This document shows, one piece after another, positions 1,947 to 49,500 of a stretch of 60,000 nucleotides of DNA (its first letter is position 1; every line of letters starts with the position of its first letter). This DNA is from Laetmonice hystrix. Lineage: Eukaryota. The notes beneath the pieces were generated by a model, which saw only the letters and a program-made list of their open reading frames with translations, ran no database searches and was not told where the DNA came from. Where the stretch lies: the NCBI GenBank assembly GCA_965235115.1, contig OZ249436.1, forward strand, positions 27,530,001-27,590,000. The letters run 5' to 3'. Both the position numbers and the translations under genes were made by a program.

Positions 1947-2320
1947 CGAGGTTGGAGCTGGCGGGAGGGGGAGAGGGAGGGGGTTAGTTATGTCGGAAAC
2001 GACGGACGTTCTCTGGTGCAATTATTAGTCAGGCAGATATGTGACAATATGTCGAAGGATTGTGCATTTTGTCATAAAAGCGCGAAACTTGGCACAGTCA
2101 TAGACCATACCCAAAGGAACAAGGCCAGAAATGGCGCCACGAGAAAAAGTCCCTGTATCACCGTTGGCAGCCATTTTAAGGTCGCCATTCCCGGAATAGC
2201 TATATCCTTCAATAACTTTGGAATTATACAACCGATTGCGATGAAAATGGTGTCTAATCCCAGGTTTTCTGGGTCAAGGATTGCGATAAAGGCATTTTAA
2301 AATTTGTACGGCGAGTAAAT

Positions 2321-2820
2321 ATGCAAATTACGGCCGCCATTACCGGAAATCCGACTTCGGTCAATGTCTCTGTAAACGTTTGTCATATTTTGTAAAGGAT
2401 GTCATCTAGACCCAGGTTTGCAAGGTCAAAGTATGTGAAAAAGGTACTTTCAGTTTTTTTCCGAATGCTAATTTATGCAAATTAGGGCCGCCATTACCGA
2501 AAATCCGATTTCGGTCTATATATTTTTTAACGTTTGTCATATTTCGTAAAGGGTGTCATCTAATCTCAGGTTTGCATGGTCAAGGTATGTGAAAAGGGTA
2601 CTTTCAGTTTTTCCTAATGCTAATTTATGCAAATCAGGGCCGCTGTTACCAAAAATCTGACTTTGGTCAATATCTTTGAAACCGCTTGTGTTAGAAAGGA
2701 GCTCGTCTAAACCCGGGTTTGCAAGGTTGAGCTCTATCAAAAGGTACTTTCAGATTTAAAAAAAGTTGATTTATGCAAACTAGGGCTGCCATCACCTATT
2801 ACTGAAAATCCGGCTTTGGT
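2321..2820. repeat. About 150-bp subterminal tandem units of the Academ left arm
   Basis: ATGCAAAT..GGCCGCCATTACC.AAATCCGA motif recurs at about 2321, 2475, 2627 and 2773. Inverted copies lie at about 5430-5720. Confidence 0.8.
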
Positions 2821-3358
2821 ATTCTCACACTGGAGTCCTTTCGGCAATCTTCGGCAGTATTCGTTCGTTTGGGGAAAGCACAGATTACATATCACTCATG
2901 GCCCAAAATGGAACATGCGTGCCACCTCACTCGTTAGCTTACTACACCAGTGACATAAAGTAGGTCTAGGCCTATCGAAGAAGGGCATCAAGCAGTGATA
3001 TTTATTTAAACTTCCGCTGGGTGTTTGTCATTAGATTAGCCACTGGTGCGGCTGGTGTCCTGGGCGAAATCCGCCATATAGCTTCTGAAAAGAAATCGGC
3101 CTAGTTCGGCAAGTGGGGTCCTCGTTAGGTTGATCCCCTGCAGCTTACCCAGGGTCCCGTGCAGGATCTCTGATCATTCATTTCAGCAAATGGGCGCGAA
3201 TGTGAGCGTGGGGACCAGCGTCATGTAATTTTGATGTTGTTCGCTTGTTCTAAGTAGGTGTCAGAAGTCCTCAAGTCGTCAATCCTTGACTTAGAGGGTA
3301 GACCTAGAGATGATGGTTAAAGGTTAGTTAGACCTAGTGGTCGTGGTGGTGGCAGTAA

Positions 3359-5025
3359 AAGTCCAAAGCTTATCAGTTTGTTGATTCGGCACAACCTGGG
3401 CCGTCCAAAGTCAAAGAGGCACCCAAAACTGACTGGACCAAGTGTGTTCTTTGCCAAACAGTCACAAGTGAAGCTGTGCAATACCCAGCAGAATCAAAGC
3501 CTCGTGATGTCGTGACGGGTCTTCTCAGGCTCATGAGCAAAATAATGCAACCGTGAAAAGTGAGGGTGGGGCTGTGGGCCTTCCTCAGTCTCCTGCGGGA
3601 CTGAGGCGTTGGATGGTTGCTGGACCTCCAAGAGAGAAATTCAGGAGTGGTTTGCAAGTTTCTTCCCTGAAAAGTGACTGTTCCCTGTTCTTACGACTCT
3701 TCATTGCCTGCCAGTCCAGAGATGCTAACCTGGATGAGTTCTTCCATCACGAGAACCAAGTATGCCCCCCCCCATCACTATCTCAGCATGGCAAGCTAAG
3801 ATCTGGATCAAAATCGGATCTCCTTTTGTGCCTAGAAGGCTATGGTGTAGTTAGAAAACACGATGTTCCATAAACCAATATGACTATCATTGATGGGGCT
3901 GCGCTAGTGAACATTCTCAAGCCACTGGCTGCTAAAACATTCTGTGAATATGCCCTGAATGTTGTCCGCCCATACATCCTAGGCCAACTGCAGCATGCTA
4001 ATCGGGTGGATGTAGTATGGGACCAGTATCTGGAGAACAGTCTGAAGGCTCATGCCAGAAGTAAGCACGGGAAGGGCATAAGAAAGAGAGTTGAAGGATC
4101 CAAGAGTCTCCCATGAAACTGGCAGCAGTTTCTACGTGTTGACGCAAACAAAACGGGTTGTTTGCATTCTTGGCAGAGTATATTTCACTGCTGGAGACTG
4201 ACAAGCAGGTTGTTACCACATATGGTGCACAGGTCCTGTGCCATCCCTCACAAGCTAGCCTACTAGCCTCTTTCAGTCACGAGGAGGCTGATACGAGAAT
4301 GATCCTGCATCTGGCAGATGCAGTGCACAAAGGCTTTCAGAAGATTTTCCATAGGACAATCGACACAGATGTTGTCATTTTGGCAGTGACAGCAGTAGCC
4401 AAGATAAAAGTCCAGGAGGTGTGGGTTGCCTTTGGTACTGGTCAGCACTTTCGATACATAGCTGCTTCTCTTGGACCTGACAAATCCAAGGCCCTCCCAG
4501 TATTTCACGCTTTCACTGGCTGTGATACGGTGTCGTTTTTAAACATGAGGGGAAAAGACCGCGTGGCAGAGGTGGAAGGTTTTTGAGGAGGTGACCTCCA
4601 CATTCTTAGCCTTGTCAACAGGACCAACTGATATATCTGATGCTCTATGACCGCAGGAGCAGGAAGGAGGATATCAGTGAGGCTCGGCAAGAGTTGTTTG
4701 CCAAGAAAGGACGTGCTATGGATGCCGTCCCTCCAACTCAGGCAGCATTGATTCAGCATATCAAAAGGGCTGTGTACCAGGGGGGCACTGCTGGGGAAAA
4801 GATCTTGAAGCGGTCCCTGAATTGCCATCGCCAAGTGACTGGGGATGGAAAGACCCCAATGACTGGAAACCATTCCGGACAACTCTGCCTGAGGCCAGCT
4901 CCTCCTCAAGGGAACTTGTAAGCTGTGGGTGCAAGAAAGGCTGTACAGGACGTTGCAAATGCAAGCAAGCAGGACTGAAATGCAGTGCTTTGTGTGAATG
5001 CAGTGGCAAGGACTGTGATGTGTAG
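3359..5025 (+). pseudogene. Disrupted Academ protein: N-terminal stub, XPG/FEN1-like (PIN/H3TH) nuclease and C-terminal Cys-rich (CXC/Cys8) finger; transposase core largely deleted
   Basis: Motifs occur in order across frameshifted ORFs: TDWTKCVLCQ (about 3428), QAHEQNNATVKSEGGAVGL...LRRWMVAGP, LDEFFHHENQ..PPSLS, IIDGAALV, VDVVWDQY, HEEADTRMILHL, DTDVVIL, FHAFTGCDTVS, PPTQAALIQHIKRAVYQ, WGW, CGCKKGCTGRCKCKQAGLKCSALCEC then stop at 5025. Multiple stops and frameshifts. Confidence 0.85.
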
Positions 5026-6436
5026 TTCAGAAATCCAGCCTTTTCATATCCAGAACCAGAAACAGTATACTGGAACTGTAAACCTGTATACAGCAAAAAT
5101 TATGTAGAAAGGCAATTTGGTAATGGATAAGAACATCATTCAACTATTTTCCGAGTTGTCAATGTCAATCCTTCATACAGTAATCTGGATTTCTATGGAT
5201 AATATTCTGTAAAACGGACATTTGGAATAGAGATTTGCTACAAAGTATACCCACTATACCTTTGTTGCTTATATTATGGGACGGCCAGTTTTAAAATAGC
5301 TGCCAAGAATTAATATTTTGGGTTGACCCAAATTCTGGAATTAATCTTTGAACCATAGTCTAATAAAGTCTGCAAAGTTTCATGCTTGTATGGAAAAATG
5401 CACGATTGTTTCAACAATCTGGCTGACTTGAAAAAAGTACCTTTCTCGTATACCTTGACCTTGCAAACCCGGGTCTAGATGAGATCCTTTACAAATTAAC
5501 ACAACCCATTATAAAAATATTGACCAAAGTCAAATTTTCGGTAATGGCGGTCCAAATTTGCATAATTTAACTTTGAACAAATCTGAAAGTACATTTTTCA
5601 TATACCTTGACCTTGTAAACCTGGGTCTACATGACATCCTTTACAAAATATGGCAAACAGTTGAAAAGATATTGACCGAAGTCGGATTTCTTGTAATGGC
5701 GGCTGTCATTTGCATAATTACTTTGCGTACAAATTTTAAAATGCCTTTATCGTAATCCTTGACCTAGAAAACCTGGACCTAGACACCATTTTCATCACAA
5801 TCGGCTGTATAATTCCAAAGTTATTGAAGGATATAGCTATTTCGGTAATGGCGACCTTAATTTGCATATTTAAAACGTTACCCAGGGTGCTCTTGAAGAC
5901 AGCCAATCAGAAAAATGCTTTAGGGTGGCCCATAGATTGTGAAACTATCAAGAAACTTTGTAACTATAGAAAATTAATGGACTTGCTAATATTTTGGGGG
6001 CGGCCATTTTTAAAATGGCCGCCACGGCTGTGAAATTAATATTTTGGGTTGGCGCCAATTCTGGAATTATTCTTTGGACCATTGTCTATAACTCTGCCAA
6101 GTTTCATGCTTTTATGACAAAATGCACAATTCTTTCACATATCTGCCTGACTATATCACTGGCAGAAACAAGAAACATCTGTTTCTTGCCACCCCCCGGT
6201 ACGTCCCGCCCCTTTCCTACTCGTCACGATCATCTTGCTGATTCCAGCATTCCACTACTAACTCATCCACGAAATACGAGATCCCATCCCATCACATTTA
6301 ATATGATTATGAAGAAAAAAAACCATTTAGGGCTGATTATTATAGTCCGGACTATACTAGTGATTGCATGGCGGCGATAGGTTGTCGCGATGGAGGAAAC
6401 AGGAAGTACTGTCTACTCTCAGTAGCTCAAAACAAT

Positions 6437-7759
6437 CTCCCCACAGTCCATGATGTTGCTCTCCTTACAGTCCATGATGTTGCTCTCCTTACAGTCCATG
6501 ATGTTGCTCTCCCTACAGTCCATGATGTTGCTCTCCCTACAGTCCATGATGTTGCTCTCCCTACAGTCCATGATGTTGCTCTCCCTACAGTCCATGATGT
6601 TGCTCTCCCTACAGTCCATGATGTTGCTCCCGCTACAGTCCATGATGTTGCTCTCCCTACAGTCCATGATGTTGCTCTCCCTACAGTCCATGATGTTGCT
6701 CTCCCTACAGTCCATGATGTTGCTCTCCTTACAGTCCATGATGTTGCTCTCCCTACAGTCCATGATGTTGCTCTCCCTACAGTCCATGATGTTGCTCTCC
6801 CTACAGTCCATGATGTTGCTCTCCCTACAGTCCATGATGTTGCTCTGCCTACAGTCCATGATGTTGCTCCCGCTATAGTCCATGATGTTGCTCTCCCTAC
6901 AGTCCATGATGTTGCTCCCGCTACAGTCCATGATGTTGCTCTCCCTACAGTCCATGATGTTGCTCTCCTTACAGTCCATGATGTTGCTCTCCCTACAGTC
7001 CATGATGTTGCTCCCGCTACAGTCCATGATGTTGCTCTCCCTACAGTCCATGATGTTGCTCCCGCTACAGTCCATGATGTTGCTCTCCCTACAGTCCATG
7101 ATGTTGCTCTCCCTACAGTCCATGATGTTGCTCTCCCTACAGTCCATGATGTTGCTCTCCCTACAGTCCATGATGTTGCTCTCCCTACAGTCCATGATGT
7201 TGCTCTCCCTACAGTCCATGATGTTGCTCTCCCTACAGTCCATGATGTTGCTCTCCCTACAGTCCATGATGTTGCTCTCCTTACAGTCCATGATGTTGCT
7301 CTCCCTACAGTCCATGATGTTGCTCTCCCTACAGTCCATGATGTTGCTCTCCCTACAGTCCATGATGTTGCTCTCCCTACAGTCCATGATGTTGCTCTGC
7401 CTACAGTCCATGATGTTGCTCCCGCTATAGTCCATGATGTTGCTCTCCCTACAGTCCATGATGTTGCTCCCGCTACAGTCCATGATGTTGCTCTCCCTAC
7501 AGTCCATGATGTTGCTCTCCTTACAGTCCATGATGTTGCTCTCCCTACAGTCCATGATGTTGCTCCCGCTACAGTCCATGATGTTGCTCTCCCTACAGTC
7601 CATGATGTTGCTCCCGCTACAGTCCATGATGTTGCTCTCCCTACAGTCCATGATGTTGCTCTCCCTACAGTCCATGATGTTGCTCTCCCTACAGTCCATG
7701 ATGTTGCTCTCCCTACAGTCCATGATGTTGCTCTCCCTACAGTCCATGATGTTGCTCTC
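6437..7759. repeat. 24-bp minisatellite (CTACAGTCCATGATGTTGCTCTCC), about 55 copies
   Basis: Directly visible, near-perfect tandem array with few variants. It generates the long repetitive ORFs in several frames. Confidence 0.98.
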
Positions 7760-7858
7760 GCCAACAGCTGGGTGAATTATCTAGCAGACATTCAGACGAC
7801 TATTTGGTACGTCATTAAAAATGAAATCAAAATCTGATACGACTGGGAAAAGGTAAGG

Positions 7859-8805
7859 CTGGTGTGTAGGCTGATGGGTAGAGGTGTTGCTCAGGCTTGA
7901 TGCAGTGGCACTGCTGCAGTTTCCCATGCCAGCCCTGGTGTGTAGGCTGATGGGTAGAGGTGTTGCTCAGGCTTGATGCAGTGGCACTGCTGCAGTTTCC
8001 CATGCCAGCCTTTTTTTTAATATAATTTTTTATTTTCCACACAAAAATAAGTTTACAACATACATGTACAATTTGCATGTTTACAAAAAGGAACAGGAAC
8101 ACACTCACGGGTACACACACAGGACAGGACACTCTTGACAATTTAAATATTAACAAAAACATACATTTACAGGTACACATATACATGTATTTGGTAGCTC
8201 ATTCTTTAACAACATCATACCTAGGAATACCAAAATAGTTCCCATTTTTAACAACCTTTCTACATACAGTCTACAAGCCCCAATAACTATATAATTTTAG
8301 TTTTATAATCTATTCCAAATTACCCCCCACTTTTTAAGAAATCAAGCCAGCCTTGGTGTGTAGGCTGATGGGTAAAAGTGTTGCTCAGGCTTGATGCAGT
8401 GGCACTGCTGCAGTTTCCCATGCCAGCCCTGGTGTGTAGGCTGATGGGTAGAGGTGTTGCTCAGGCTTGATGCAGTGGCACTGCTGCAGTTTCCCATGCC
8501 AGCCCTGGTGTGTAGGCTGATGGGTAGAGGTGTTGCTCAGGCTTGATGCAGTGGCACTGCTGCAGTTTCCCATGCCAGCCCTGGTGTGTAGGCTGATGGG
8601 TAGAGGTGTTGCTCAGGCTTGATGCAGTGGCACTGCTGCAGTTTCCCATGCCAGCCCTGGTGTGTAGGCTGATGGGTAGAGGTGTTGCTCAGGCTTGATG
8701 CAGTGGCACTGCTGCAGTTTCCCATGCCAGCCCTGGTGTGTAGGCTGATGGGTAGAGGTGTTGCTCAGGCTTGATGCAGTGGCACTGCTGCAGTTTCCCA
8801 TGCCA
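7859..8805. repeat. 76-bp tandem repeat, 2 + 6 copies, interrupted at 8011-8345
   Basis: Unit CTGGTGTGTAGGCTGATGGGTAGAGG...TTTCCCATGCCAGCC at 7859 and 7935, then 8353-8805. Confidence 0.97.
8011..8345 (-). mobile_element. 5'-truncated non-LTR retrotransposon (L1/Tx1-like 3' end) inserted in the 76-bp array
   Basis: The minus strand ends in an A-rich tail (T-run at 8011). It is flanked by duplicated GCCAGCC(TT) at 8004 and 8346. The minus strand opens with FLKKWGVIWNRL*, resembling the last residues of an L1/Tx1 ORF2, followed by an AT-rich UTR-like segment. Confidence 0.72.
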
Positions 8806-10114
8806 TCCCCCTTGACCGAGGGATTGATTTGTGGTCTAGGTCAGGCCATCGCCCTGCAGTGGGATTCGGTGCAGCTTAATCGGCCGATTGGAAGCGTCAG
8901 CCCGGATCTGCCAGCTTAAAGTGATTATAACCAGCCCCAGGTTCTATCATGCAGTTCGGTAGCATAGAGAATTTAAAGGAGGCACAGATGAGGGCAGATC
9001 TACTTGATTCTATCATGCAACCATGAGTCTTTTTTTTCAACATTTTTATTCGCGCTCAACCACATTCATTGCGGCGTATGCACTGTTTATTTGATAAATA
9101 GTCGTTACTGTGTCATCCATATTACCACCAACCAGGCCGTAACCATGGCAACAAGCCTTGGCTTCATTGTAAATATCGTGAAAAGGACGCCATCTACCTG
9201 TCCCTTTAGTTAGTATGAGTGCCGGGGATATCCTACCGGATATTAGACAAACTTATTAACAGACTTAGAGTGGTAGATTCACGGTATTTTAACCTATATC
9301 AATTTCTTCATTAAGGAACCGGTATCCGTTCCCGCTAGAAGACTGTCAGTAATACACCATGTTGTCAAGATTTAATGACGCATTCCGCTTTCACTATTGG
9401 GACTTCATAGGACATTCCTGAAAGCTAATAGGCCCCTTACTGAGAAACTCTGCTGACTCAACGTATAGGTGGATTGTCTGACCTATAACACTTCCATGTA
9501 CAGTGCTATTGAGTGTAATGTCCTGCAGTTACGCGGTATACGAGCGGTAGATCTATATTTACGTGGCAATAGCCTGCCGTTTTGGAACTACACTCGGGGC
9601 AGTACAACCGCCTATTGACCTGTCATCAGATTCGGTCAGAGATCAGTCGAAGGTAGGCTTACACAGGACTTATCAATCATCTTACAGAGGTCGGGGGGGG
9701 GGGGGAGGTCGGGGCCCTGTAATGTTATAGATTTATAGTCAATAATCGTGCCGAGTTTGTCATTGCGCGTCCAGGGCAGGCCGAGTGTAACAACTGGACA
9801 CTGTTTATACGACACGTGACGTGGAGTTTATTAGACACAGGGCTGGGGCAGGAGGCAAGGCTATTTGTCACATTCTTTGCGAGTCAAAAAAGCAGGCTGG
9901 TGACAAGGGACTGGGAGGGAGGGTGGGTTCTGGGGGATGGGGTTGGGGTGGGGTATGATACCCTTGGCCTTCCATGCCCCTGATGATTGCGACAACTTGA
10001 CAGTGACATGAACACGGACATGCATTCATGTACCACGTTACTATGCATGTCATGGCATTTAGTTTACACTGAAGGCCTATTATCTGACGGGCAAAATATT
10101 TTTCAAGGAAGTTT

Positions 10115-13100: not shown

Positions 13101-15636
13101 ATAGATAGCGCAAGCCAATTTTCTACCGAGTCCCACTACTCGCCATCCGACACTCCAACCACTCGCGCTATATTGCCGCTGACCCATCCATCTGGAAACA
13201 TCGCCTCCCTCCATTTTCCCCTCGCTTCCCCTCCATTCTCAAGCCTGACTGTTCAGTCAGCATAATAATACTAGGCTATCGACCAACGACCATGGTAGCG
13301 TTTCTCTGCCATCAGCCATTCCCTTTCATTTCGCGTCATGTGCGAGGTGCCCTCCCCCCTCCCTCACCACAAGCACCCCCCACCCCAGCCCCACCTCAAA
13401 CTCGCCGCCCCTCAGGCTCCCCGTCGCTGAGCGTGATTCGATTACAGTGTTTGCGGCCTCACTCGCCGGCGGCAATGCCAATTTCCTTGGCTGTCTGCTT
13501 TGTGTGCCCATAACCCAACCGGCCTTCTCTCCCTCACACACCAGCCCCACCCCTTGTCAGGCCTTTTTTTCTTCTTCCCAATCCTCCCATCCCCCCCCAC
13601 CTCCTCCCCCAAACACCCCCTTCTCACACATAGAAACCCTGACCATGCATGTGCCTGCATTGGGGAGGGGGAAACTGTTACTGTTTCTGCTCAAGAAATA
13701 GCATGTCCAAAGGGCAAAGAAATACCAGTCGAATGAATAAGTAGGCCTCGCTAACATAGGCTCACAAGTGATACTGTCTATCGCTCGGCCGCAATACAAG
13801 CCTGCAGCAGTCTATCATTTGAACGTGATCGATAAGGAGCCCATTTCGACTGGATAGCGAGTGAGGCGTGGTGCAAAAGGCATCACGGTTGCGTGCAGTA
13901 GCAACAAAAAGAGAGATAGCCCTATGTATTAACGTATATTTGCTTTCCCCAAAGTATTCGCAATGATAGAATAAGCAATATGACTTTATCACTGTCGGTT
14001 ACAAACTCAAACCAAACCTTTTCCATTATTTCTATGCTCGGAGTAACATTAGCATCGGCGGCTAAGCAGATGACAATGTAAATATGTCCATAAGGCAGCC
14101 CGCGTTTTTCCTAACTCCCCAGGGTATAGACGTAAAATTATACTTGGGTCACTGTTGAATATAAGCCTTGTATCCATCTCAGGGTAATAACACCCCTCCA
14201 CTGTGCTAATGGGCGTGTAATTTAACTCCTCAGTCTGCGGCATTATTGATTGGCAAGCCGAGTTAGGTTGGAATCTTCAGGCGGTATAAGGTAAACGTTT
14301 CATCCCACTGGTCGACCGAGACCCCCTCAGAGGATCATACATCCGTCTGACATCTATTAGGTTTCCATCCGCCGTACCCAAAATTAATGGAAACTTTTAG
14401 AAGCAAGGCCTTAATATGTTTGAGAATAAAATAACCTGGAGAGAGAAATACTCGAAATCATGTTGAGAGAGTCAAGTGTTAAGAGAGATTCAATTAAGGA
14501 TGATTAACTTCAGTGAAAAATCATTATGAATTATCTATTCTGGCTTCCCCTTAGGACGGTCAGTGGTATTACGACTACACCATTACCAGGCTATTGGTTT
14601 AGGGCCACACATATGTTTTGCGATGTTAGACGAGAGAAGTTTTGCTGGGCCAGCCTTGACAGACATTCAGGCTGAAACATATCTATAAACAAAAGTGACG
14701 TGTTCTTCTCGCCGGCTTGTCTACATGAGCTAGTCAAGGTGGCCGTTGGTGTCAGTGAATCTAAGTGACCAGTCTCCTGATACCAAGGACCACCCAGCGA
14801 TTTGATGCGGCAGACTGGTGTTAGGACCTCAGTGTCGGAGGGTACTTTAGTGCGGCGCTGACCTGTAATCCGCGGCTTGATTTACAGCGGCATAAAGCCA
14901 TTAACGCCCTGTCCTCGTCTGCGTAAATATCGGCCCCTACTGCCGTCCGTGCGTTTTTATTATACTCCACAAGCCGAGTGTATAGAATGGCTGGGCAACA
15001 CAGGATGGCCGGGTGACACAGGCAGCGGTTGAGGAGGAGGGTGGGGGTGGGGGGGGGAGGGTCATTTTGGAGTCTATCTAGGTGGGCTCGGCAGGCACAT
15101 ATGTTAGATGCGTCTATTAGCTTCCGTTCGTCCTCGGTCGACCGCAAAACCGAGAGGAGTGACTCAGTTGGTGAATGGTAAACAGTTCGGCAGATAATTT
15201 AGCCACTCTGATAGCGGCAAACTCTCCTATATTGACACTTATCTCAGGAAGAGGTTGGAGGATGTAGCGCAGTGGTGTCGGAGGTTGGAGGAATGAGATT
15301 AGATACAGAATCTATACTACAGGACGCCCCTATATAGGTCTGTGTGGCTATCAGGTTTAACACGATGGCTTCTTATCAGTCGTTGCCAAACCACAAACAC
15401 CTATTTAGACAACCTCGTGGAATCCCTAATACATTTAATTTTATTTTGGGGATATAATTTTATTTGGGGGGGGGGGGGGAGAACTTCTCCTCACTATAAT
15501 GTCAACTCGGAAGTGAAAACGTTGACTAAGCGTTTGTGCAGATGGGAATGTTTTGCTGATTCGCTGCCTCCACTTGCCGACAGATGGTGAGCAGATGGAC
15601 GTGATAAAAACAACGAGTTGGCAGTTTGGCGACGCC

Positions 15637-15963
15637 TTTACTTCTCCAACCAGTCCAGGATCTAACTTTACTTCTCCAACCAGTCCAGGATCTAACTTTA
15701 CTTCTCCAACCAGTCCAGGATCTAACTTTACTTCTCCAACCAGTCCAGGATCTAACTTTACTTCTCCAACCAGTCCAGGATCTAACTTTACTTCTCCAAC
15801 CAGTCCAGGATCTAACTTTACTTCTCCAACCAGTCCAGGATCTAACTTTACTTCTCCAACCAGTCCAGGATCGAACTTTACTTCTCCAACCAGTCCAGGA
15901 TCTAACTTTACTTCTCCAACCAGTCCAGGATCTAACTTTACTTCTCCAACCAGTCCAGGATCT
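15637..15963. repeat. 30-bp minisatellite (TTTACTTCTCCAACCAGTCCAGGATCTAAC), about 11 copies
   Basis: Near-perfect tandem array with a single variant unit. Confidence 0.98.
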
Positions 15964-17367: not shown

Positions 17368-18114
17368 GGTTCGAACTGTCAATATGATGGGCCCATTCAG
17401 CACGGGGTTCGAACTGTCAATATGATGGGCCCATTCAGCACGGGGTTCGAACTGTCAATATGATGGGCCCATTCAGCACGGGGTTCGAACTGGCAATGTG
17501 ATGGGCCCATTCAGTACGGGGTTCGAACTGGCAATATGATGGGCCCATTCAGCACGGGGTTCGAACATTACTGTCAATATGACGGGCCCATTCAGTACGG
17601 GGTTCGAACATTACTGTCAATATGACGGGCCCATTCAGTACGGGGTTCGAACATTACTGTCAATATGATGGGCCCATTCAGCACGGGGTTCGAACATTAC
17701 TGTCAATATGATGGGCCCATTCAGCACGGGGTTCGAACTGTCAATATGACGGGCCCATTCAGCACGGGGTTCGAACTGACAATATGACGGGCCCATTCAG
17801 CACGGGGTTCGAACTGTCAATATGATGGGCCCATTCAGTACGGGGTTCGAACTGACAATATGACGGGCCCATTCAGTACGGGGTTCGAACTGTCAATATG
17901 ACGGGCCCATTCAGCACGGGGTTCGAACTGTCAATATGACGGGCCCATTCAGCACGGGGTTCGAACTGTCAATATGATGGGCCCATTCAGTACGGGGTTC
18001 GAACTGACAATATGACGGGCCCATTCAGCACGGGGTTCGAACTGTCAATATGACGGGCCCATTCAGTACGGGGTTCGAACTGTCAATATGATGGGCCCAT
18101 TCAGCACGGGGTTC
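17368..18114. repeat. 38/43-bp minisatellite, about 19 units
   Basis: Unit GGGGTTCGAACTGTCAATATGA(T/C)GGGCCCATTCAG(C/T)AC. Four consecutive units carry an extra 5 bp (CATTA). Confidence 0.97.
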
Positions 18115-30650: not shown

Positions 30651-30990
30651 AGGTGCTATTCGTTTCGCACAGAATGGCATTTCTCCTATCATACATTGTG
30701 CACATAGTACTAGAAAAAATTCCTACCGATACCATTGGCCTGATAAACATTCTATTAGTCTGTGAGCAGCATTTGAAACCTATCTCGGTGCGCACCGAGA
30801 TAGAGCCATTTCCTATGGTGGGGCGTGTCAGGGGCTCCACAGGCCTTCTGAGAGAGCCCCATTTGTGCCGTTATCCATGAAAAATTTTGATTTCCTTTGT
30901 TGTGAATCTATTTCCATGACAGGTGGGATCACATAAACGTCAACAAAATAAAAAATAAAAAAATTGAACTTTTTTTCACGAATAGCACCT
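30651..30990. mobile_element. Kolobok-type non-autonomous DNA transposon (MITE), 340 bp
   Basis: TTAA | AGGTGCTATTCGT ... ACGAATAGCACCT | TTAA. Perfect 13-bp TIR starting with purines (AG) and a TTAA TSD. No ORF. Confidence 0.85.
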
Positions 30991-32289: not shown

Positions 32290-35100
32290 CGTCTTGTAAA
32301 TCAGGCTAATAACCTGTCAGCGAAACCACTAAGAGTATTGTCATAGTTAGCACTGTGTTGATGTCAGATGTGATATTATAGCAGACTGTTGTAGAGGTGA
32401 CTAGATCGAGCCTCGTCTAGTCTAACAATCACATAGACCTAGACCGAACTGGTCGTAAACCTGCACACGGTCCGAGTATGGTAGACACAAGATGGTTGAT
32501 ATCTCTGCCAAACCGTTCAAGTACGAGGTCGAGCAGTTGATTAATCTCCCTATTAAATGCTAAATTACTATGGGAAAACCATGCTCAATTAAATTAACTG
32601 CACTGTAAAAAATATTCGTAAAATAACAGACAAAATTTACTATTAAATTTGGTGTAAACTTCTTTTACAGTAGAATTATCTGTTAAGTAATACAGTACTT
32701 TTTACAGTAAAAATCATTTACCAATATAGTTACTATAAAATTACAAGTGTTTGTGTTAAATTTACGTTTTTTCCATATTTCTTTATGACACAATGGTAAA
32801 ATGTAGTAAATTCCGTAATATTACTTAAAACCGTGAAAAAAAACTGAGAAAATGGTTAATAAAAATTACAGAATACTGTTATTACCAAATTTTCACAGAG
32901 GAACTTTGTTAAAATAACACATAATAATAGCTGTGTAATGTAAGCCCTCTATTTACACATTTTATTATGGTAAATTTATAGAAAAAAATATTTTATTATA
33001 CATTTCTGATGATAGGAATTTACAAAAAAAACTGGCATTAGGCCTACTTCCCAGTTTTTACAGAAAAAGTTTGTAAAAAAATGTAGAATATCACTAAATA
33101 TACAAAATAATGAAAAAAATGGCCTAATTGCAACGTAAACACATAAAAAATTGGCCCTTTGTTTAACTTAAATACATAAAGTACCCGTGTGCACTGTTAA
33201 GAAAATGGAAATTTGCAAGATATAAAACTGTAAAAGGAACAGCGCATGCTCCTGTTATTGGAAATTACTGCCAATGTTACTGTAGTTTGACAGCTACTGT
33301 TGCTGTATTCGATCTGTACAATAAACGAACTGTAAATTTACAGGACGTAAGACGTTACTGGATAACCAGCACAGTGGTCACGTGATGACTATCACCTGCC
33401 CTTTTTATTGTCTATACCCCGAAGTGTCCTATACCTGTGATAGTCGGTTAATGCAACCGTGGCCATAAATTAACAATAATATGAATACACTCTTTGTGAT
33501 GGTAAGTAGAGTGGAATGTCAAACAGGGGCCTAATTATGAAGTGGGATTTGTTAATATTTCTCATAAAACACCATCTTTGGACGCTAGAGAACATAATAT
33601 TAACTCCTTTGTAAAAGCAGACTATATTATAATGCGGAGTAGCCTCTTAGGTTGCAGACGTTTGAGTTTCCCTTGAATGGACCTTGAATGAAATTATCAA
33701 TCAGGCCATACGTAGGCCTACATGTATTTAAACTAAAAAGCCAGATTTTTGTTTCTCGTTTATCATCGACGATTTTTTAAACAGTATTTACCGTAAAAAT
33801 ACAGTAAATATTCTTTATAGTAATTTTGTAATTTTACAAACGTAGCGTTTATAAACTGGATTCGGTATAATTACATTACTGTATTTCAGTTATAATGAAT
33901 AATTTGCGTTTGTTATTTTACAAACGTTGCGTTTAAAAACTGGATTCTGTATAAATGCATTACAATTTATCTGTCGTTTAACAGATCTGTAAAATTACTG
34001 TTAATATAACTGGCAGCTGAGCTGCCAGTTAAATTAACTGTAAAATTACAGAGAATTTTTTTACAGTGTGAAATCAGATAAAGAAGGAGACTGTAAATAT
34101 TCGGAGGGGGAATTCTTTTGCGAATTCCTTAGCGATAAAGAACGCTAAATGTTGGCCAGATAGCGCCGTGGCTCGCAGTAGTGAGATGACGGGAAGAGAA
34201 AGACAGTCATTCCAATTGGGCGTCTATCTGTTGCCCAACCTTCTGCATAGCAGTCACATTAGCGTCTGGAAGCCAGTCGATTACCCTAGTAGCATGGCTG
34301 TTAGGTTGCCATCAATGCCGTCAAATCCCAACCGAGGCCGCATCAAAATGGCGGCTCTTCATGTGTACGAGGGAGCTCATGAAATTCCCCGCGTTTGCAA
34401 ATGCCCCGCAGACATGGAGTGCCTGCATGGCCTGCACCCGATGGCGCAGGCTGGCCATATCTTGAATTATTACCAGTATAGATGGAGAGTTCTCGGTCTC
34501 CTCCTCCAAGTGCTGCTTAGCGAGCCTTCAAAATGTAATCAAATAACACATCCTGTTATTTCGTGCGTGTTTTTGTGTTTGAAACGCCTTGCTGCCACAA
34601 ACAGAGGTTTATAACTATATCACGTCCCATCGGTGTATATAATGGAGTAGCACAACCACATAATAGTCAGGTATCATATGATATGCATTCCTGTCACTCT
34701 CTGATGGGTCATGCCGACTGTATAAGAGAATCTAAAGCTACTAACAAGCCCATTACGTCTCACTCGAGGCCAGCGTCGGGAGATGCAGATCGGATAAAGG
34801 TCGCTCTTCGCCCTAAGAAAAATACGCACGAAACCAAATGGCTGCCTGCAGAGGCTTCCTGGTGAAAGTAGATAATTATGAAACGCTCAGCTTTTAGAGA
34901 ACCGGCAGTTGCGATCAAAATATGAAACGCAGATGGAATTTGCAGCAACAATCTCCTTTACGAGTCGTCAACCTGCAGCGATTTCTAGTCCTTCAATTGA
35001 CGTGAAGACATACGTTTTCGTTTGTGGCCAAGTGGTCTTTCCTGCAGTGGTTGGGTTAAGATAAGCCATGTTGAAGGCGTTCCCTGACAAGTAGTCAAAT
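32290..35100 (-). mobile_element. Very decayed DIRS/Ngaro-like tyrosine-recombinase retrotransposon remnant (RT end, RNase H, YR N-terminus), split by the EnSpm element
   Basis: Minus-strand fragments in the expected order: GKTTWPQTKTYVFTSIE (compare KT.GP.T...FLGIE), TFIRSASPDAGL (compare FTDAS...G.G), IQSA*P..E* (compare FQG.WP.EW), PLFVAARRF...GCVI*LH, SPSI...ALHVCGAFANAGNFMSSL (compare A.HIPG..N..AD.LSR), then QIDAQLE*LS...GAIWPTF...PPPNIYSLLLYL. Beyond the insertion: LIEHGF...HLVSTILGPCAGLRP. Many stops and frameshifts. Confidence 0.5.
32601..34068. mobile_element. CACTA/EnSpm-type non-autonomous DNA transposon, 1468 bp, AT-rich
   Basis: TG | CACTGTAAAAAA ... TTTTTTACAGTG | TG. CACTG termini, 12-bp perfect TIR and 2-bp TSD as in animal EnSpm. 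Many subterminal CTGTAAA/TTTACAG motifs, an internal duplication at about 33833/33918, and no ORF in the track. Confidence 0.85.
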
Positions 35101-41100: not shown

Positions 41101-41905
41101 ACTTCTACACAGGTCAGATTGTAATCACATTCGATTCGTTTAACTTTTTGTAATCTTTGCAATGTCCAACGCTTAGATCGAGTGAAATATTTTTATCAGC
41201 AATTCTGAGCTCGAGATAACTAAATGTAGTACGTTAATACGCCTAACCAGATCACCAAAACGTCATGCACCTTTAGATATACGCCCAGTATGAAGGCCTG
41301 CCAGTATAGTTAGAGTCTTAAAGCTGTATTTTCACTGAGAATCTGAGTGTTGAATTCCATCCACAACATAATGTGAATTACCGATGGCTACGCTTCTAGC
41401 CTAAGGCCTAGCAATAATTGGAATAGCTGTTCTAAGAAGATTGGATGATTTCTGGGCTATATGTATATCCTACATTATATCTCAAGATTATATTGAAGAC
41501 TTCGAAGATTTCATGCAATGAATTGCAGTTAATCGAACACCTCTCCCTAATATCAATGTTTTCAATGGCCAAACGGAGGGTCTACTGTTTCACGGCCGAT
41601 GTTGGATTTGGCGCATTCAGTGGTTTGCATTCATGGCTGTAAATATAGGCCATGCAGGCAGTCTGGCCTTCTGCCACGGGCAAGCCGCACTCAGGCAGGC
41701 CCTGCCGTTGTGTTATACAAGGAGGGCATTATTGACATTTTCATAAGCTAGCGCCTATTGAATTCGGTTCGCTCTATACCTAAATTGAGTACCCACTGGA
41801 TTTCCTTTAAACACAATTTGCCAGCACCATGACTCTCTGCGACAGCTGCTATATTTATTTACGCACAGTCACAAAGGGGCTAGCTTCGATAATGGCCTCT
41901 CTGTC

Positions 41906-41951
41906 AGCCAATCAGAGCGTGAATTTCAACAAACTAGCTTGCTGATTGGCC
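41906..41951. promoter_or_regulatory. Pair of oppositely oriented CCAAT (NF-Y-like) boxes
   Basis: AGCCAATCAG at 41906 and CTGATTGGC at 41942, just upstream of the footprint-dense, CpG-containing region. Could instead belong to a repeat. Confidence 0.25.
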
Positions 41952-42949
41952 CTTGTGGTTTAGCGCGCCTGGTCTGAGATGTCAATTCCCCCTCGAGACC
42001 ATTCTCACGTTACACGCGGTTTTCTGGGCTGCCCATTAAAATAACACAGGTAGGGCCTATACGTTTAGGCCAAATTAAACTCGCTGATATTGTTCTAAGT
42101 ATGATACTTGGAACCAAACTCCATCGCCAGTCGAGTACAGAGACTAAGCACAAACGATTGTGACTTTCAATGTTAAAACGTTCTTATCATAAACGCCTAT
42201 TTCATAAGGACATTTTTGTAAGCGATTAAGGAGAAATCCACGCAAGGCGCCGGGGGGGGGGGGGGGGGGCTGCTCCAAAACATTGAAGGAGCATTGTCCA
42301 GACCCATGACCCAGACCTCAAACCGAACAAGAAGAGGCGTTCAAATAGTCGCATATTTCTAAATAAAAAATATTGGCCTATAGCTGTCCACAGATAGATT
42401 TTCTTCAGTTTAGGCCGAAGTATAGGGCAGCTATAATGCTAGCTGACCGCCTGCTGTGGCTCGATTCACCTGTCCAGACTCTATCCCAAGGGCGGCGGAT
42501 TTGATACAATAAACCACGCATTTGTATCAAATGTTCCCAAAGGAGGAAGGCTATAGGCTTAGGCCTATACCCTGAAGTTGTTCGTTTACAGACCTGCCAA
42601 CCTACAGAGAGAAAGGTTAAAAGTTGATGTCCAAAAAAACCTGGAAATTGGAGGAAAACCTGGAGATGTTTTGGGGAAACCTTGGAGATTACATTATAAA
42701 GCCGATATGAGTGGTGGAGAAACGTCAGTATGGAGCCACTACATTCTACACATGAAGTACACAACTTATAACATACCATCAATTTAATAAATTTAAAATA
42801 TAAACACACTCAAGATTAGTTTGTGTACATAGGTGTACATATACACGAGTTTTCAATTTACCGTGAGAAAATTGTGACATAGGGGGGCCTACCGGTGGGG
42901 GGGGGGGATCAGGTTAAAAACTGGTTATCCCCTGTGAGTTAGATCGAGT

Positions 42950-43243
42950 GAAGGTTATAGGTTTAGGGTTAGTTATATTTGGTTTTAGGGTTAGGGTTGC
43001 TTATTGCATACTTCGGACTAGTGAACCCTAGCTCTTATAGGCCTACTAGTGAACCCTCGGACTAGTGAACCCTATAATTATATACCCTCTAGCTGATATT
43101 TGCGGACATATCCGGATTACTGGACACATCTAGCTGATATTTGCAGATATATCCAGATTATACCGGACATATCTAGCTGATATTTTCGGACATTATATTT
43201 CCTCTCGGACATAACTAGCCGTTCGGACATATCTAGCCGGAGC
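42950..43243. repeat. Unclassified repeat-built element fragment: TTAGGG-like tract plus short internal direct repeats
   Basis: TTTAGGGTTAG and TTTTAGGGTTAGGGTT, then ACTAGTGAACCCT x3, TCTAGCTGATATTT x3 and CGGACATA several times. Confidence 0.6.
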
Positions 43244-43796
43244 AGGCCCTGGCAGCTGCTCACACTCCCCTATCCACGTGCAGCGCTCGTGAATATCGTG
43301 TGCAGTGCCGCGCACCTCGTTTGCAACGCGCAGCGAGCTTGACGTCCGCGCAGACATGGCGCGTGAAAGTAGGTCAATGTACATTGCCATCGCGAGAATC
43401 CTGCAATGTCGAGTCGTCAGCGGGAAAGGCGATCATAGGAAGCCATCATGATGACGTAGGCCATTATGTAGGCCTAGGCCTATGTCTTGCAGGCCAAGTA
43501 ATGTGCATGCACCCTGTGTCTGTCACACTGTACATTCTCTGGGTGTAGGCCTATGTCTGGGTGTGCGCATGGAAAGAAGTAGGGCCTATATCTACTAGCC
43601 TATATTATTGTAATTGTAACATTTAGCCTACTAGGCCTACATTAATTTACAAGCCGTAGCCGTAGGCGAAACAAAGACAACACCGATTTGTAGGCCTATC
43701 ACTAACCGATAATGTAGTAAAGTTATGCCTATATAACCGTTAATGTATCAACCAAGCGATAATTGACAGTTTGTCAAAACTGGGAATATCGACTAG

Positions 43797-43847
43797 ATCT
43801 AATCAACAAGTAGGCCTATCGAATTATTCTATACTCGTTGATCTAAT
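43797..43847. mobile_element. P-superfamily-like footprint (7-bp TSD) carrying a nested GGCCTA insertion
   Basis: ATCTAAT | CAACAAGTA-GGCCTA-TCGAATTATTCTATACTCGTTG | ATCTAAT. Removing GGCCTA leaves a 31-bp near-palindrome (15+1+15, two mismatches). Confidence 0.72.
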
Positions 43848-43855
43848 TTACAAAT

Positions 43856-44382
43856 CAGGGGCGTCGATGGGGGGGGGGGGGGTACCCCCCCCCCCAGCCA
43901 CACCCACCCACCCACCCACACTTTTGCTGGTGGCCTAAAACGGTTAGATCTAAAGGCACCTGAAGTTAGCGTATACCTTTCCTATACGGCCTTTGAAGGT
44001 CAAATGCACAGGGAAAGCAACCGAAAAAATGAACAGAATTCAATGATTATATATTAGAATTTTTTTTATTAATACATAGGCCAAGGCCTAATCATGTACC
44101 GGTAGGCCTATAGGCCAACAAATGAAACGCAAGTAAGGAATTATATCCTGATTGAAGTAGCCTACCTGTTACTATGAACTTTTAGACGTGTTTTTGTTTG
44201 ATTTCAATGACGATGTTGTCCACCTACAAACGTAGTGTAACGCAGTGCAGTAGGTCGATATATTGGGTACTATTTGACAACCCTTTTTACTTTTAGATGT
44301 AACATAAATCTAAGGTGAAAGGTCAAACACATATCAGCCCCCCGCCCCCACTTTGAAATAGGCCTAGGCAGCGACACACCTG
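43856..44382. mobile_element. MITE with CAGG(G/T)G termini and 5-bp TSD
   Basis: CAAAT | CAGGGGCGTCG ... CGACACACCTG | CAAAT. G/C-run subterminal tracts. The right end is locally re-duplicated (44383-44415). Confidence 0.6.
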
Positions 44383-46232
44383 CAAATAGGGTTAGGCAGC
44401 GGCGCACCTGCAAATATGCCTACGCAAATAGGCCTAATCTAAAATTCATAATAAATAATAGCCTATAGGGCCTACTGGGTCAGCCGCCTATAGGCCTAGA
44501 TCATCCAGGCTTTGGTCCTGAAAAATAGGCCTATCTTGGAAAAGATGTCAGCCACTATAGGCCTATTTATGCAGTTCACTGTTATTCGTGCAGTTTTGAT
44601 TATAAATCTTATCTTATGGCTTTCCTTTAATCCTTTGTTGAAAAAGGTCCAGAATTTGAAAATGTGCCCCAGCTGGGCTGGCTAAAAAAGGTCCAGAATG
44701 TGAAATGTGCCCCACCCCAACATTATGGGCTGGCGACGACTTCAAAATACGTTCTCTGACTCGGCTCAGAGCAAAACGCTACCGCTTTTAATTAAAGCAG
44801 CATAAATATACAATGTAATTGTTTCTCATCGACATTGTTAACTATTAACCGCGAAACGTGACGGCCATTCATTCGTCCTAATATAATATCGTACTCTTTG
44901 TAGCATTGTGAACAGATTTGTCACGCTGTTTCAAAACAATTTACTCGATCCATAGAGAATCCGTCTGTCCGTTTTATGATGTCAGAGTCAGAGACATATC
45001 GATGCGTCTACTGACCACAGATCTACGGATGATAAGAAGTTCTTGAAAGTCGATCGGAATGAGACCTTCTTTGGAATTAGATATGATATTGGAAGAAGGA
45101 CTTGAGATATTTTTGAAGGCGGATACAGTCGCCATCAATCAACCAGTGTCTCAATCACAGCCTCGATGACGTTTGATGTATCTCATGCTGCGTTGGCTAC
45201 TCAATCCAACTCCTAGGTCTGCCACCGTCTGGCCCCACAAATGTGAGAAGATGGGCGTATAATTTGGTAAGTAGCCTACTGTAAACAAATCATGTGCATA
45301 GCGCTGCACTGGTTGTGCACGATTCCCTCCACCTCACAATGGCAATGAACTGAGGACCGTGCAAAAAAAACCCACAGAAAACCATTTACTTGTCATTTTT
45401 CAGAGCAAAACCTCCTCCAATGACAATGGAACCCCTGGCCGTATTTTGGGTTGATAAGCTACTTTACCTGTATTAATCTTTACACCCAGCTCTGCTATTT
45501 TGCTAAACTCCTAGACCGAGGTAAGCACACTTTTAAATCAAGCAATTAGCGAGTATCTCATTAACAGTTCAATGACTTTATCGCGCGATGAACCAATGAA
45601 TTTCATTCAAGTTCAATTCAATGCCAGGTCAACAACCAGCCACTGAGCCATGGCATGAGACGTTCGCGTCATGGCGACTAATGACAAGTTTACATCTATA
45701 GGCTACTTATTCTGTATCTATGTGCATTGGACTTCACTTGGTACCGTATGGATCCAGTTGTTTTGTTGTTGACCCTGTGACAGACGGTAAAAATAATACA
45801 TAGGCCTAACAGTCCACTTTTAGTTGTTAAGTAGGCCTAACCATGGACAAACTAGATCTACCTGAGACTGCTAGTGATACTGTCATATCTGAATTTGACT
45901 GACGTTTGACAACTGGGACATAGGCCTATCTATAGTAGGCCTACCAGGTATACATGTTTATAATATAATAATGCACAAGGCGAAAGGAACCTCTAAACTC
46001 TAAACAAGTGCCATTGAACGATCAATACTGGCAAAGCCAAAATGATGATAACAAGATAAATGGGCCTACAAGTAGTACAAAAGATGACAACATGTACTTT
46101 TATTTCTTTCAAGTCTGGGGCGTTGTGCCCTTGAACAAGAATAGTAGAATGGATCCATTCTCTTGCCTTGAGTGCATGTCATGCAGGGAGAATGTAGGCC
46201 TTGAATAGGTGTGGCTATAGTATGTCATTATG

Positions 46233-46569
46233 CAGTGATATAGGAACGGGGGGGGGGCTCTCACGTGTGGGGTTGGGGGGGGGGGGGGGGTGGATGGGTG
46301 GGGGGGGGGGATGTCCTCTTCTAGTCCAAAATTATCATTATTTTATTAAATATCTAGCTATTTATAGCGTTTTAGATTCCAGATTCACACTGGTTCTTTG
46401 AGGACGGACGTTTGACAACTTTGTTTTCGTTTTCTTGTCTTTTTTTTTAATTTTTAAGGGGACCCCCCCCCTCCCCGATCCGGTCCTGACAATATATACA
46501 TGCAGTGTAGTTTGCTTTTTTCTGACCTGCCCTCCCTCTTCCACTTGAAAATTGCTTCCTACATCACTG
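46233..46569. mobile_element. Old MITE (hAT-like CAGTG termini)
   Basis: CAGTGATATAGGAA (46233) vs TTCCTACATCACTG (ends 46569), 13/14 inverted match. No intact TSD. Confidence 0.5.
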
Positions 46570-49500
46570 TTGTGTAAGTTCAGTTCAGTCTTCGGTGACA
46601 CGATATATAGCCTAGGCTATTATTATCTTTGCCGTCTACCCATACCATACTGTAGACTGCAAGAATTTTTTGTTTTGTTTTTAGACTGCAAGTATTGATT
46701 ATGTTTCTCCAGTTAAGATCAAATATTCATCTTATTATTTATCAAATTAAGCTAATATGCATAACAACATTCCCAAAATGACACATTCTTGCATATTTTC
46801 TGAGCAGAAAATGATTGCTGATATTGCTGATTCCATGTTGCCCCCTCCCTGTACGTAGCTTCAGAGCCCGTTAGAATGGTAGAGCTCTACTGTGCCTGGC
46901 GCTCGGATGGGTGAGCACGATTTTCCAGCTCACTGTTAAAGGGCCGGTCGTACTATCATCATTCAGTCAATGTTCTCTTTCAACATCTGGTTTTAAACTT
47001 GGCACGAATAAGACTCACTCAGTACAAGGTCCCAGCTTGGACGATTTATAATAAGTCAAAGGGCTGAGCGAATGTGCAAAGATTGGTATGCGACGCTTTG
47101 CGATTTATAACCACTGTTTGCCGAACAGTTCAGAACATTTTTAGCTACACACAACGGAAACAAAATGGGTCGTTTTTGTTTGAAGATAACTGTTTCTGAG
47201 ACATTCCCCCTATTTACGTAATGGGTTTGTATACTAGTAATTATGTGGATATTATTTCACCAGTACCGGTAGACAATTTTAATATACATCTGTAGTATAT
47301 AGTGTGTTCACTCTCTACTTGCAATGTATGCGATTGGGATCACGTAGTGCAGATAGCCTATCGGCGTTATTCGCGAGGCTTAAATTTAATAGAAGAGTAT
47401 ATTTACGTTCAATGAGCAGTTAGCGCACAAGAATATATCTTGTACGAATAGATGACGAGTCATTTTGTAAACCTTCCAACTATAAACAGTATTGTCATCA
47501 AGGAGCGCGAGATATGTGGAATGAATTAGGCCACTTTGTTGTCGACATTCTGTGCGTTGAAATTTACATTGTGTGCATACAAGATACAGGCCAAGGTTAT
47601 ACAGTACACTCGGTTTATCAGAAATGGAGCTTAAATAATCACAACTTAGACTTTGGTACATAAGCTAAAGCAATAGAGGGACTATTAGCACTGATAGAGA
47701 ATCTAGTGAAACATGAGGAGCAATATTGATGTCGCCATTTTTACATGCTGGTCAGGAAGGAAAGGTTACTGTATGAGAGAGGAAAGATTTTTTAAAGAAA
47801 TGAATGTTCCCCAGACTGAAAATGATTTAGACTTATCAGAGACAAACTTCTATAATAAGATATGAGCAGCATAATGTTTCTTGAATTACCAATAATATTA
47901 TCCTCATCTGAAAATTATGATGCCGGAATTAATAAAAATGTTCCAAATTTTGCATCAGAACAACCGATGACAATTACTCCATACGTAAAAAGTGGGATTG
48001 GGGAGGCCAAATATGATATGGATGTATACGTACTCGATGACTTCTCTGTATCATGTCACCAAACAGATGGGATGTCCTGGACCACAGACTTGGTCTGTGA
48101 TCCCCTGCCCCCCCTCCTCTTCGCCAGCCCCCCCCCCCTGCCTGAGGTGGCCCATTTGAAGACGGTCTTAAAGGACCGACTGGCTTCCATGCATGCCGAA
48201 CATTTAGAGGAATCCTGCCCACCGAGGTCAAGATTTATCCAGATATTGTGCCAACGTTACATTGAGAATGATCTGAGTTGAAATGAAACTAGTAAACTCC
48301 TTTAAACAGCCTTTCATCAAATCTAAAATCTTTGGGGTCTACCTCTGATGCTAAAGAAAAGTTACCTTCAATAACTCAGTTCATTTTGTCGAACTGAAAT
48401 TGAATAATGCAAAAAACATACTTGTTTTAAAATTTTGTTGGTCATGAAAAATGAATCTAAATCATAGTGGCAAATAAGGAAATGCTAACATGATCATTTT
48501 TGACATCGTGGCAAACTGCATGCCTTTTGGGAAAGTGTGCATGGACAAAATGCCCGTCGGCAAACTGTCCTTTGGTCTGTACCTGAGGTCCATCGAGAAA
48601 ATGTCTGGATATCATTTTCTAAGGCAGGTAAAGCTACATTTCTTTTTATGTATTGGATCCTTGATGAAATCATCTCCTTGTACATATCTGGTGCAGACGT
48701 GTACATGCCAGGCAGCTTGTCGGTTTTGAATGTCGCTAGACTGAGGAGGTCCATTTTGAGACTGAAGAGATGGTAGCATTCAAGACAAACCTAGTAAACT
48801 CAGTGGGTAGTTTGTGTTGTGTGTGTGTATGATAGTCTGACTGCGATTTTACCGGTTACTTTACACTTTCGTCGGGTCGGGTTAAGTCACGCTGAGGGCA
48901 GATTTTCCCGGGCGAGATGTGAACGCGTTTAGCCCTGGGTATAACTTAGCACAGATGGGCGGTTACCTCGGCCAGAACTCGGCGGACAAGTTGATGTTTA
49001 ACCTTGTAGAAGAAGAGAGACCCACTTCTATATTATTACTCAAGGCTGATTATCTATTTAAGGTACTGCTAAACTAAAAACACATTTTGGCTGTTTGTAT
49101 CTGATACTTGTTTATCAACTTTAAATGTGTTTATGCAGATGTGCCAAACATTAAGATCACGTCTAATCATTCGGATTTGAGGCTAGTGGCAACGATACGA
49201 CGATCTGTGTGACAAAAATTATGTTTCCTTGTATTCACATTATTCTACACTTGCCACAAATTTACCTTACTCTTCAAAACTGTAAGGCAGATTTCGCGTT
49301 CGAAAAGCATATTCAGGTAATCATTTGCCCAAAACTTAAAGAGATGCTTTGTTTAAAGCACCATTTCACTCCTAGTTTTAAAAAATATTTCAGGGGGAGC
49401 ATGCCCCAGGACCCCCCCCCCCCCTATAAATTTTGCGCCTATGGCTCTCGTTACAGCTGCTTTACCGCTGCATCAGTAGGATTTCACATCCTCAAAGGTT

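Follow-up and report, generated by a model that had tools for sequence, protein, structure and literature searches.

A dense field of TAGGCCTA palindromes in Laetmonice hystrix and its possible origin as transposon footprints

Introduction

What could place one palindrome, TAGGCCTA, 18 times within 3384 nt of an animal contig? The question concerns the interval 42560-45943 of a 60,000-nt stretch of Laetmonice hystrix DNA (assembly GCA_965235115.1, contig OZ249436.1, positions 27,530,001 to 27,590,000 of the forward strand), which is called the window here and to which all coordinates refer. Excision footprints of transposons are usually studied singly in assays. According to the account in PMC6943129, the excision of Tc1/mariner elements produces 3' overhangs of the terminal letters and a footprint of TA, 2-4 letters and TA, which in Sleeping Beauty (SB) is TACAGTA or TACTGTA. 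The Tc1-like element ZB is reported to prefer enhancers and active start sites and to leave footprints of 0-3 bp (PMC7913693). Here, we argue that the words are probably excision footprints of a TA-targeting cut-and-paste element beginning with GGC, piled up at an accessible promoter edge, an explanation to which we give somewhat better than even credence. Within it, we infer that an element with such ends existed, how its overhangs were joined, that a promoter lies here and that the DNA was accessible in the germline.

The hotspot and its words

The window contains 26 copies of TAGGCCTA, against a mean of 0.78 and a maximum of 3 in 100 dinucleotide shuffles, and 18 of the 26 form a hotspot in the span 42560-45943 (3384 nt), starting at 42560, 43038, 43469, 43475, 43546, 43632, 43691, 43811, 44103, 44359, 44429, 44491, 44526, 44558, 45801, 45832, 45921 and 45936 (features are without strand unless one is given). 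No further copy occurs in the window past 45943. A preliminary description of this DNA had already counted all 18, with a single coordinate to be corrected (44526, not 44525). None of the other 136 TA-NNNN-TA words is as over-represented as TAGGCCTA, for which an order-2 Markov model predicts 0.84 copies, and it also ranks top among the 3720 XY-NNNN-XY words in the window. When 26 sites were randomly placed on the TA positions of the window, the fullest span of 3384 nt held at most 10 of them in 10,000 runs. The spacings between the copies are irregular (6-1243 nt), and the flanks differ at every site.

Length variants accompany the palindrome. The forms TAGCCTA, TAGGCTA and TAGGGCCTA, which the preliminary description had named, exist in 11, 5 and 3 copies in the window, giving cores of 3 letters (GCC 11, GGC 5), 4 letters (26) and 5 letters (3). 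The 7-letter forms are in excess (16 vs 5.45 expected) and gather in the span (6 of 16, p 1.6e-4), as does TAGGGCCTA (2 of 3, p 0.009). The hotspot therefore comprises 27 TA-core-TA modules, namely 18 TAGGCCTA, 6 TAGCCTA/TAGGCTA, 2 TAGGGCCTA and 1 TACCGGTA, which would account for 158 of the 3384 nt if every module is an insertion. Shorter forms show no enrichment in the window, neither TAGGTA/TACCTA (17 vs 22.7; 0/18 inside the span) nor TAGCTA (9 vs 8.9; 0/9 inside the span). The scatter of core lengths and the two end-derived orientations match those of Tc1/mariner footprints, with the 5-letter core one letter beyond the published range.

Two further words had been put forward as companions of the same form. 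TACCGGTA does occur at 11258, 44097 and 47264, and TACATGTA has 6 copies, all of them outside the span. The counts (3 vs 0.42 for TACCGGTA; 4 vs 1.4 for TACATGTA after masking of tandem arrays) do not reach significance when 136 words are compared, and both were dropped as co-enriched words. Another word, TAGATCTA, occurs at 43794, 43945, 45853, 9548 and 10877 (5 vs 0.59 expected), with three of these copies inside the hotspot, and is possibly a better candidate for a second footprint type than either.

The letters around the palindrome are also biased. A purine before and a pyrimidine after TAGGCCTA are found at 37 of 52 half-sites, compared with 0.54 for all TA (p 0.008). The bias at the -1 position is symmetric and concerns G and A (G 0.39 vs 0.21 in the window and 0.34 vs 0.22 in the public loci described below), with a weak A/T bias further out. 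Flanking repeats beyond the TA are nearly lacking around the 26 sites (3-nt repeats at 1, repeats of 4-9 nt at 0). In addition, 41.3-47.5 kb holds more one-mismatch neighbours of TAGGCCTA than expected (12 vs 2.5), which fits scars of mixed age.

Three sub-clusters can be told apart within the hotspot. Sub-cluster 1 (43469..43818) holds TAGGCCTA at 43469, 43475, 43546, 43632, 43691 and 43811, TAGGGCCTA at 43580 and TAGCCTA at 43596 and 43624, and its first two palindromes share one TA. Sub-cluster 2 (44097..44565) begins with TACCGGTA at 44097, which shares a TA with the TAGGCCTA at 44103, and continues with TAGGCCTA at 44359, 44429, 44491, 44526 and 44558, TAGCCTA at 44158 and 44459 and TAGGGCCTA at 44466. 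Sub-cluster 3 (45699..45943) consists of TAGGCTA at 45699 and TAGGCCTA at 45801, 45832, 45921 and 45936. Outside the span, TA-sharing chains are formed at 33713..33726, where the last TA of TAGGCCTA is also that of TACATGTA, and just beyond it at 46608..46619, where TAGCCTA and TAGGCTA have a TA in common. The window thus has 4 such chains, 2 inside the span (2.5 predicted from density) and 2 outside (0.19 predicted).

Copy depth was read from contigs of three sequencing runs of one sample, perhaps the source of the window itself, that match 41200-47600. The checked places in the three sub-clusters have single-copy depth of ~25-65 and stand among high-copy repeats of depth up to ~96,000; single-copy depth was found in the bins 43340-43767 of sub-cluster 1, at 44485 and 44580 in sub-cluster 2 and in sub-cluster 3. 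Hence the hotspot is not the consensus of one repeat. The crowding of repeats in the span that had been described earlier is real, with contig depths to ~95,000 against ~50 in single-copy bins, while the P-like scar reported with it has no counterpart, as a search of 41.5-47.7 kb turned up no element that has inverted ends and is flanked by a duplication of 7-9 nt. One high-copy stretch (42698..43240, depth 9,000-96,000) contains the TAGGCCTA at 43038, the only copy of the hotspot inside such a repeat. Some other copies of this repeat join across the 43038 spot with different letters, and none offers a clean TA-only site. The repeat has GGTTAG-like runs and internal repeats of 16 and 43 nt, and we take it to resemble non-autonomous Helentrons.

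Insertion at TA in other genomes

If the words are scars, a bare TA should face them in some related copy. Public metagenome contigs were chosen by two TAGGCCTA within 30 nt, which gave at least 122 loci. None of the 90 longest of the 94 matches among these loci and the window involves the window, and the loci are therefore taken to come from other organisms. For the counts 114 loci were kept, after removal of L005, L007, L038, L045, L083, L092 and L110 (tandem or low complexity) and of L061, which overlaps L060; alignment rows of hairpins with themselves were left out of the empty-site counts.

Across the loci, a second copy of the surrounding repeat was available for alignment at 13 motif sites, counted by eye, and in 4 of the 13 a bare TA stands opposite the motif, with 5, 5, 6 and 7 letters added. 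These are L070:1010 (+5, empty in L053, L066 and L035), L053:2058 (+5, empty in two copies in L060), L018:455 (+6, empty in L059) and L057:611 (+7, empty in the second L057 copy and in L006). The word family thus does insert at TA, and as a whole block, at least in those genomes, and we regard its insertion nature as fairly well supported. Furthermore, forms for which the loci had not been selected are in excess in the 114 loci (7-letter forms 90 vs 23.7, 9-letter forms 18 vs 1.3), and the purine/pyrimidine flank bias recurs (442 of 646 half-sites vs 0.51). No enrichment was seen in these loci for TAGGTA/TACCTA (60 vs 74.9), TAGCTA (46 vs 45.3) or TAGATCTA (3 vs 2.3).

Some loci have an architecture of their own. 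L078:759-962 is a near-perfect hairpin of ~200 nt (97%) with TAGGCCTA on both arms, and in L005:1-1260 TAGGCCTA belongs to the repeated unit of a satellite-like array, which is another way of reaching high copy number.

A promoter-like setting

The window is of animal type, being rich in repeats, with a CpG observed-to-expected ratio (o/e) of ~0.7. Within 9-60 kb, the strongest change point in CpG lies at 45,000, inside the span, with an o/e of 0.81 before and 0.60 after it (0/1000 block permutations). Such a step from CpG-rich to CpG-depleted DNA is what a promoter or gene 5' end would give, although the step alone is also compatible with a gene 3' end and its direction rests on two weak donor sites on the + strand. 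In invertebrates with mosaic methylation, a CpG step of this kind is the edge of a body-methylated gene. The two donor-like sites, at 45267 and 45521 (45267..45526, + strand), could end short non-coding exons; they are weak matches to an approximate matrix.

Two CpG-rich cores free of modules, with bounds set by eye, lie in the span. Core A (43237..43460, o/e 1.18) is a candidate promoter or enhancer, and in 3/3 runs a contig covering 43217-43495 is identical to the window. Core B (44740..45100, o/e 1.5) is a candidate transcription start that coincides with the change point at ~45,000, and a contig reaching up to 45090 is again identical in 3/3 runs. The contigs adjoining both cores carry substitutions and indels. 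On these features a promoter is probable, and the hotspot would lie where a gene with a methylated body has its 5' end.

The promoter-like character proposed in the preliminary description thus finds a correlate in the CpG step near 45 kb, but the searches for coding exons, homologs and RNA families identified no gene. A Pfam search of 150 of the 153 frames of at least 50 aa in 36-60 kb gave no match (E 0.01), though shorter exons would escape it, and with 10 frames at E 0.1 nothing appeared except two sub-threshold domains of unknown function (DUFs). Rfam gave no match in 38-52 kb, an exon scan returned one unconvincing candidate, and long reading frames in the window are confined to tandem arrays and a broken transposon gene. 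An open frame of 139 aa at 47862-48278 (+) has no Pfam match, no homolog among longer proteins and no Atlas match at or above 0.9.

A footprint model and the evidence on both sides

How could an excising element yield mostly a palindrome? In the model that we favour, an element starting with GGC would insert at R-TA-Y and duplicate the TA, and its excision would leave a 3-nt overhang GGC on each flank, like the CAG of Sleeping Beauty. If all three overhang letters were joined, with a central mismatch, TAGGCTA or TAGCCTA would result (+5); if the self-complementary last two letters were joined, GC with GC, and two one-letter gaps were filled, the product would be TAGGCCTA (+6), and the +7 forms would be slips. 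The dominance of the palindrome would then follow from the pairing of the GC ends of the overhangs with each other. The co-clustering of the variants points to GGC ends. A 3-nt overhang is favoured over a 2-nt one, since TAGGTA/TACCTA, expected from a 2-letter overhang, is not enriched, although a 2-letter overhang with fill-in would also yield the palindrome. The scars would accumulate here because the DNA next to the 5' end of a gene with a methylated body is itself unmethylated and accessible, and they would persist beside, not inside, the two constrained CpG-rich cores, which selection would keep clean.

Several results weigh against this model. Among the contigs listed, which cover 7 of the 18 hotspot sites (42560; 43469 and 43475; 45801 and 45832; 45921 and 45936), none has a TA-only allele or a loss of 6 letters; the insertion with TA duplication implied by the preliminary description is seen at 4/13 sites in contigs of other organisms. 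There are no paralogous empty sites inside the window, as no repeat copy covers a motif. The empty-site alignments are ~65-81% identical and come from organisms other than that of the window, and the remaining 9 of the 13 sites comprise 3 that are common to both copies, 1 substitution (L060:818), 1 gain of 8 letters and 4 ambiguous cases. Neither the window nor the at least 122 loci yielded an element that is flanked by TA and has inverted ends starting with GG or GGC. The flank bias towards G differs from the AT-rich palindromic target ATATATAT of ZB and SB, which lowers the likeness to these two elements only, because target preferences differ between families. At 4256, TAGCCTA is simply part of what a transposon gene encodes, and some 7-mers are therefore chance. 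No coding exon was identified downstream of the hotspot by the Pfam, homolog, Atlas, Rfam and exon searches, and the TA-sharing chains inside the span were dropped as evidence, as they show no excess over density (2 vs 2.5).

With respect to candidates, the element with GGC... and ...GCC ends that had been postulated from the motif was met by no match in the scans of window and loci for TA-flanked inverted ends, and apparent matches with GG or GGC ends turned out to be pairs of the palindrome itself. The TAGCCTA at 4256 was rejected as an insertion on account of a gap-free alignment to a homologous protein.

Other elements in the window

The window contains elements of other kinds. A 4.1-kb element at 2026-6153 has TAG...CTA ends, a TAT target duplication, long arms and subterminal repeats of 152-154 nt; its gene is frameshifted and internally deleted, with 74-78% identity to unnamed proteins of 920 aa, and we take the element to be Academ-like. 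A 340-bp inverted-end element at 30651-30990 has AGG...CCT ends and a TTAA duplication and is presumably Kolobok- or piggyBac-like. At 32601-34068 lies an AT-rich element of 1.5 kb with CACTG...CAGTG ends and a TG duplication, which contains the TAGGCCTA copies at 33039 and 33713 and which we assume to be CMC/EnSpm-like. Tandem arrays occupy 6436-7767, 7859-8809, 15636-15963 and 17368-18114, with units of 24, 76, 30 and 38 nt.

Alternative explanations

The most probable alternative is that of TA-duplicating insertions made outside a full cycle of insertion and excision of a GGC-ended element, for example through abortive integration, the action of a domesticated transposase or the repair of staggered breaks at TA with a fixed filler. 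Insertion at TA is seen, yet a matching element was found neither in the 60 kb nor in the at least 122 loci, as this explanation would have it; the space covered by that search is, however, tiny. We know of no repair path that adds a fixed GGCC, and terminal overhangs of the described type produce just such a constant core in forms of +5, +6 and +7 (PMC6943129). We consider such an origin unlikely, and the hotspot would still mark accessible DNA if it were true.

Could the words instead be binding sites? They would then form a homotypic cluster around a CpG-rich promoter, maintained by selection because a ZFX-like zinc-finger protein or a dimeric factor binds there. Basic leucine zipper (bZIP) factors are known to have palindromic sites of 8 letters alongside a 7-letter version. 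The motif AGGCCTAG, with the core AGGCCT, is reported to be bound by ZFX, often in several copies, ~240 nt either side of CpG-island starts (PMC5848610). The words here likewise flank CpG-rich cores, and the 7 sites covered by the listed contigs have no TA-only allele. Against these points, AGGCCTAG with its final G is present in only 8 of 52 orientations (background 0.19), the outer T and A are found on 26 of 40 AGGCCT, the spacings are irregular, the words avoid the invariant CpG-rich cores, and the word family is seen elsewhere as whole-block insertions inside repeats. A cluster built as binding sites is therefore quite unlikely in our view, although scars may have been used as binding sites later.

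The footprints might also stem from a PHIS/Harbinger- or Academ-type element with GG or TAG ends and not from one like Tc1/mariner. Harbinger excision is usually near-seamless, which speaks against the first of these. Inverted repeats of PHIS elements are described as usually beginning with A or G, and with AG or GG in Pangu (PMC4482050), and a TA-duplicating lineage, PHISTA, is known from rust fungi (PMC12730594); the animal groups treated in PMC4482050, however, duplicate AT, TWA, ANT, CWG or TNA, and 3-nt repeats flank only 1 of the 26 sites. An Academ-type source can point to the TAG-ended element at 2026-6153, but this element continues from TAG with TC, not GC, and duplicates TAT. Both sources seem very improbable.

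Finally, local amplification by slippage, tandem duplication or one repeat family carrying the word, which a 28-nt tandem unit at 44349-44404 with the word in one copy and some satellite loci built on the word (L005) might suggest, is scarcely credible and largely refuted, because the flanks are unrelated between sites, most checked sites are at single-copy depth and no tandem array spans more than one site.

Novelty and significance

Open-licence papers yielded no literature on TAGGCCTA as a word or on fields of such scars. Excision footprints are a known kind of trace, and what appears to be undescribed is a GGC-type core in a dense field at a probable promoter edge. Should a single footprint type explain all 27 modules beside the 5' end of a gene, transposon traffic would be one of the chief sources of the sequence that flanks promoters in this animal. 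The density of TAGGCCTA could then serve to locate promoters and to date past transposon activity without chromatin data, and motif finders would take the scar for a regulatory motif. The overhang model predicts a TA-flanked element beginning with GGC. More tentatively, and with considerable doubt, the scars may come from an undescribed TA-targeting family with GGC ends, active in this and other animal lineages, which would home to germline-open promoters and cycle through them so often that its scars make up ~5% of start-site-adjacent DNA. On this reading, chromatin that was accessible in the ancestral germline could be mapped from TAGGCCTA density by sequence only, and the scars would keep supplying new promoter motifs with a ZFX-like core.

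Comparison with known systems

The field resembles several known systems in part. PHIS elements have ends that often start with G, and PHISTA duplicates TA, whereas the AT or 3-nt duplication of the animal groups is not seen at this locus and PHISTA is, in the account cited, described only from rust fungi (PMC12730594). With the ZFX/ZFY/ZNF711 motif AGGCCTAG, the words share AGGCCT and the occurrence of several copies around a CpG-rich, promoter-like region; they differ from it in showing no preference for the final G (8/52), in their near-obligate outer T and A, in their length variants and in the whole-block insertions.

The likeness to Tc1/mariner footprints lies in the form of TA, a short fixed core and TA, in two 3-letter cores that are reverse-complementary, in the scatter of lengths and in the insertion at a bare TA seen in contigs of other organisms. 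As with ZB, there is a bias to regulatory DNA, here predicted from sequence. In contrast to Sleeping Beauty, the core is GGC, GCC or GGCC instead of CAG or CTG, with the 4-letter palindromic core dominant, and the flank bias is towards G, not AT-rich as in SB and ZB. Unlike the footprints of excision assays, the locus would present a dense natural field of fixed scars, and the putative element would be known from its scars alone.

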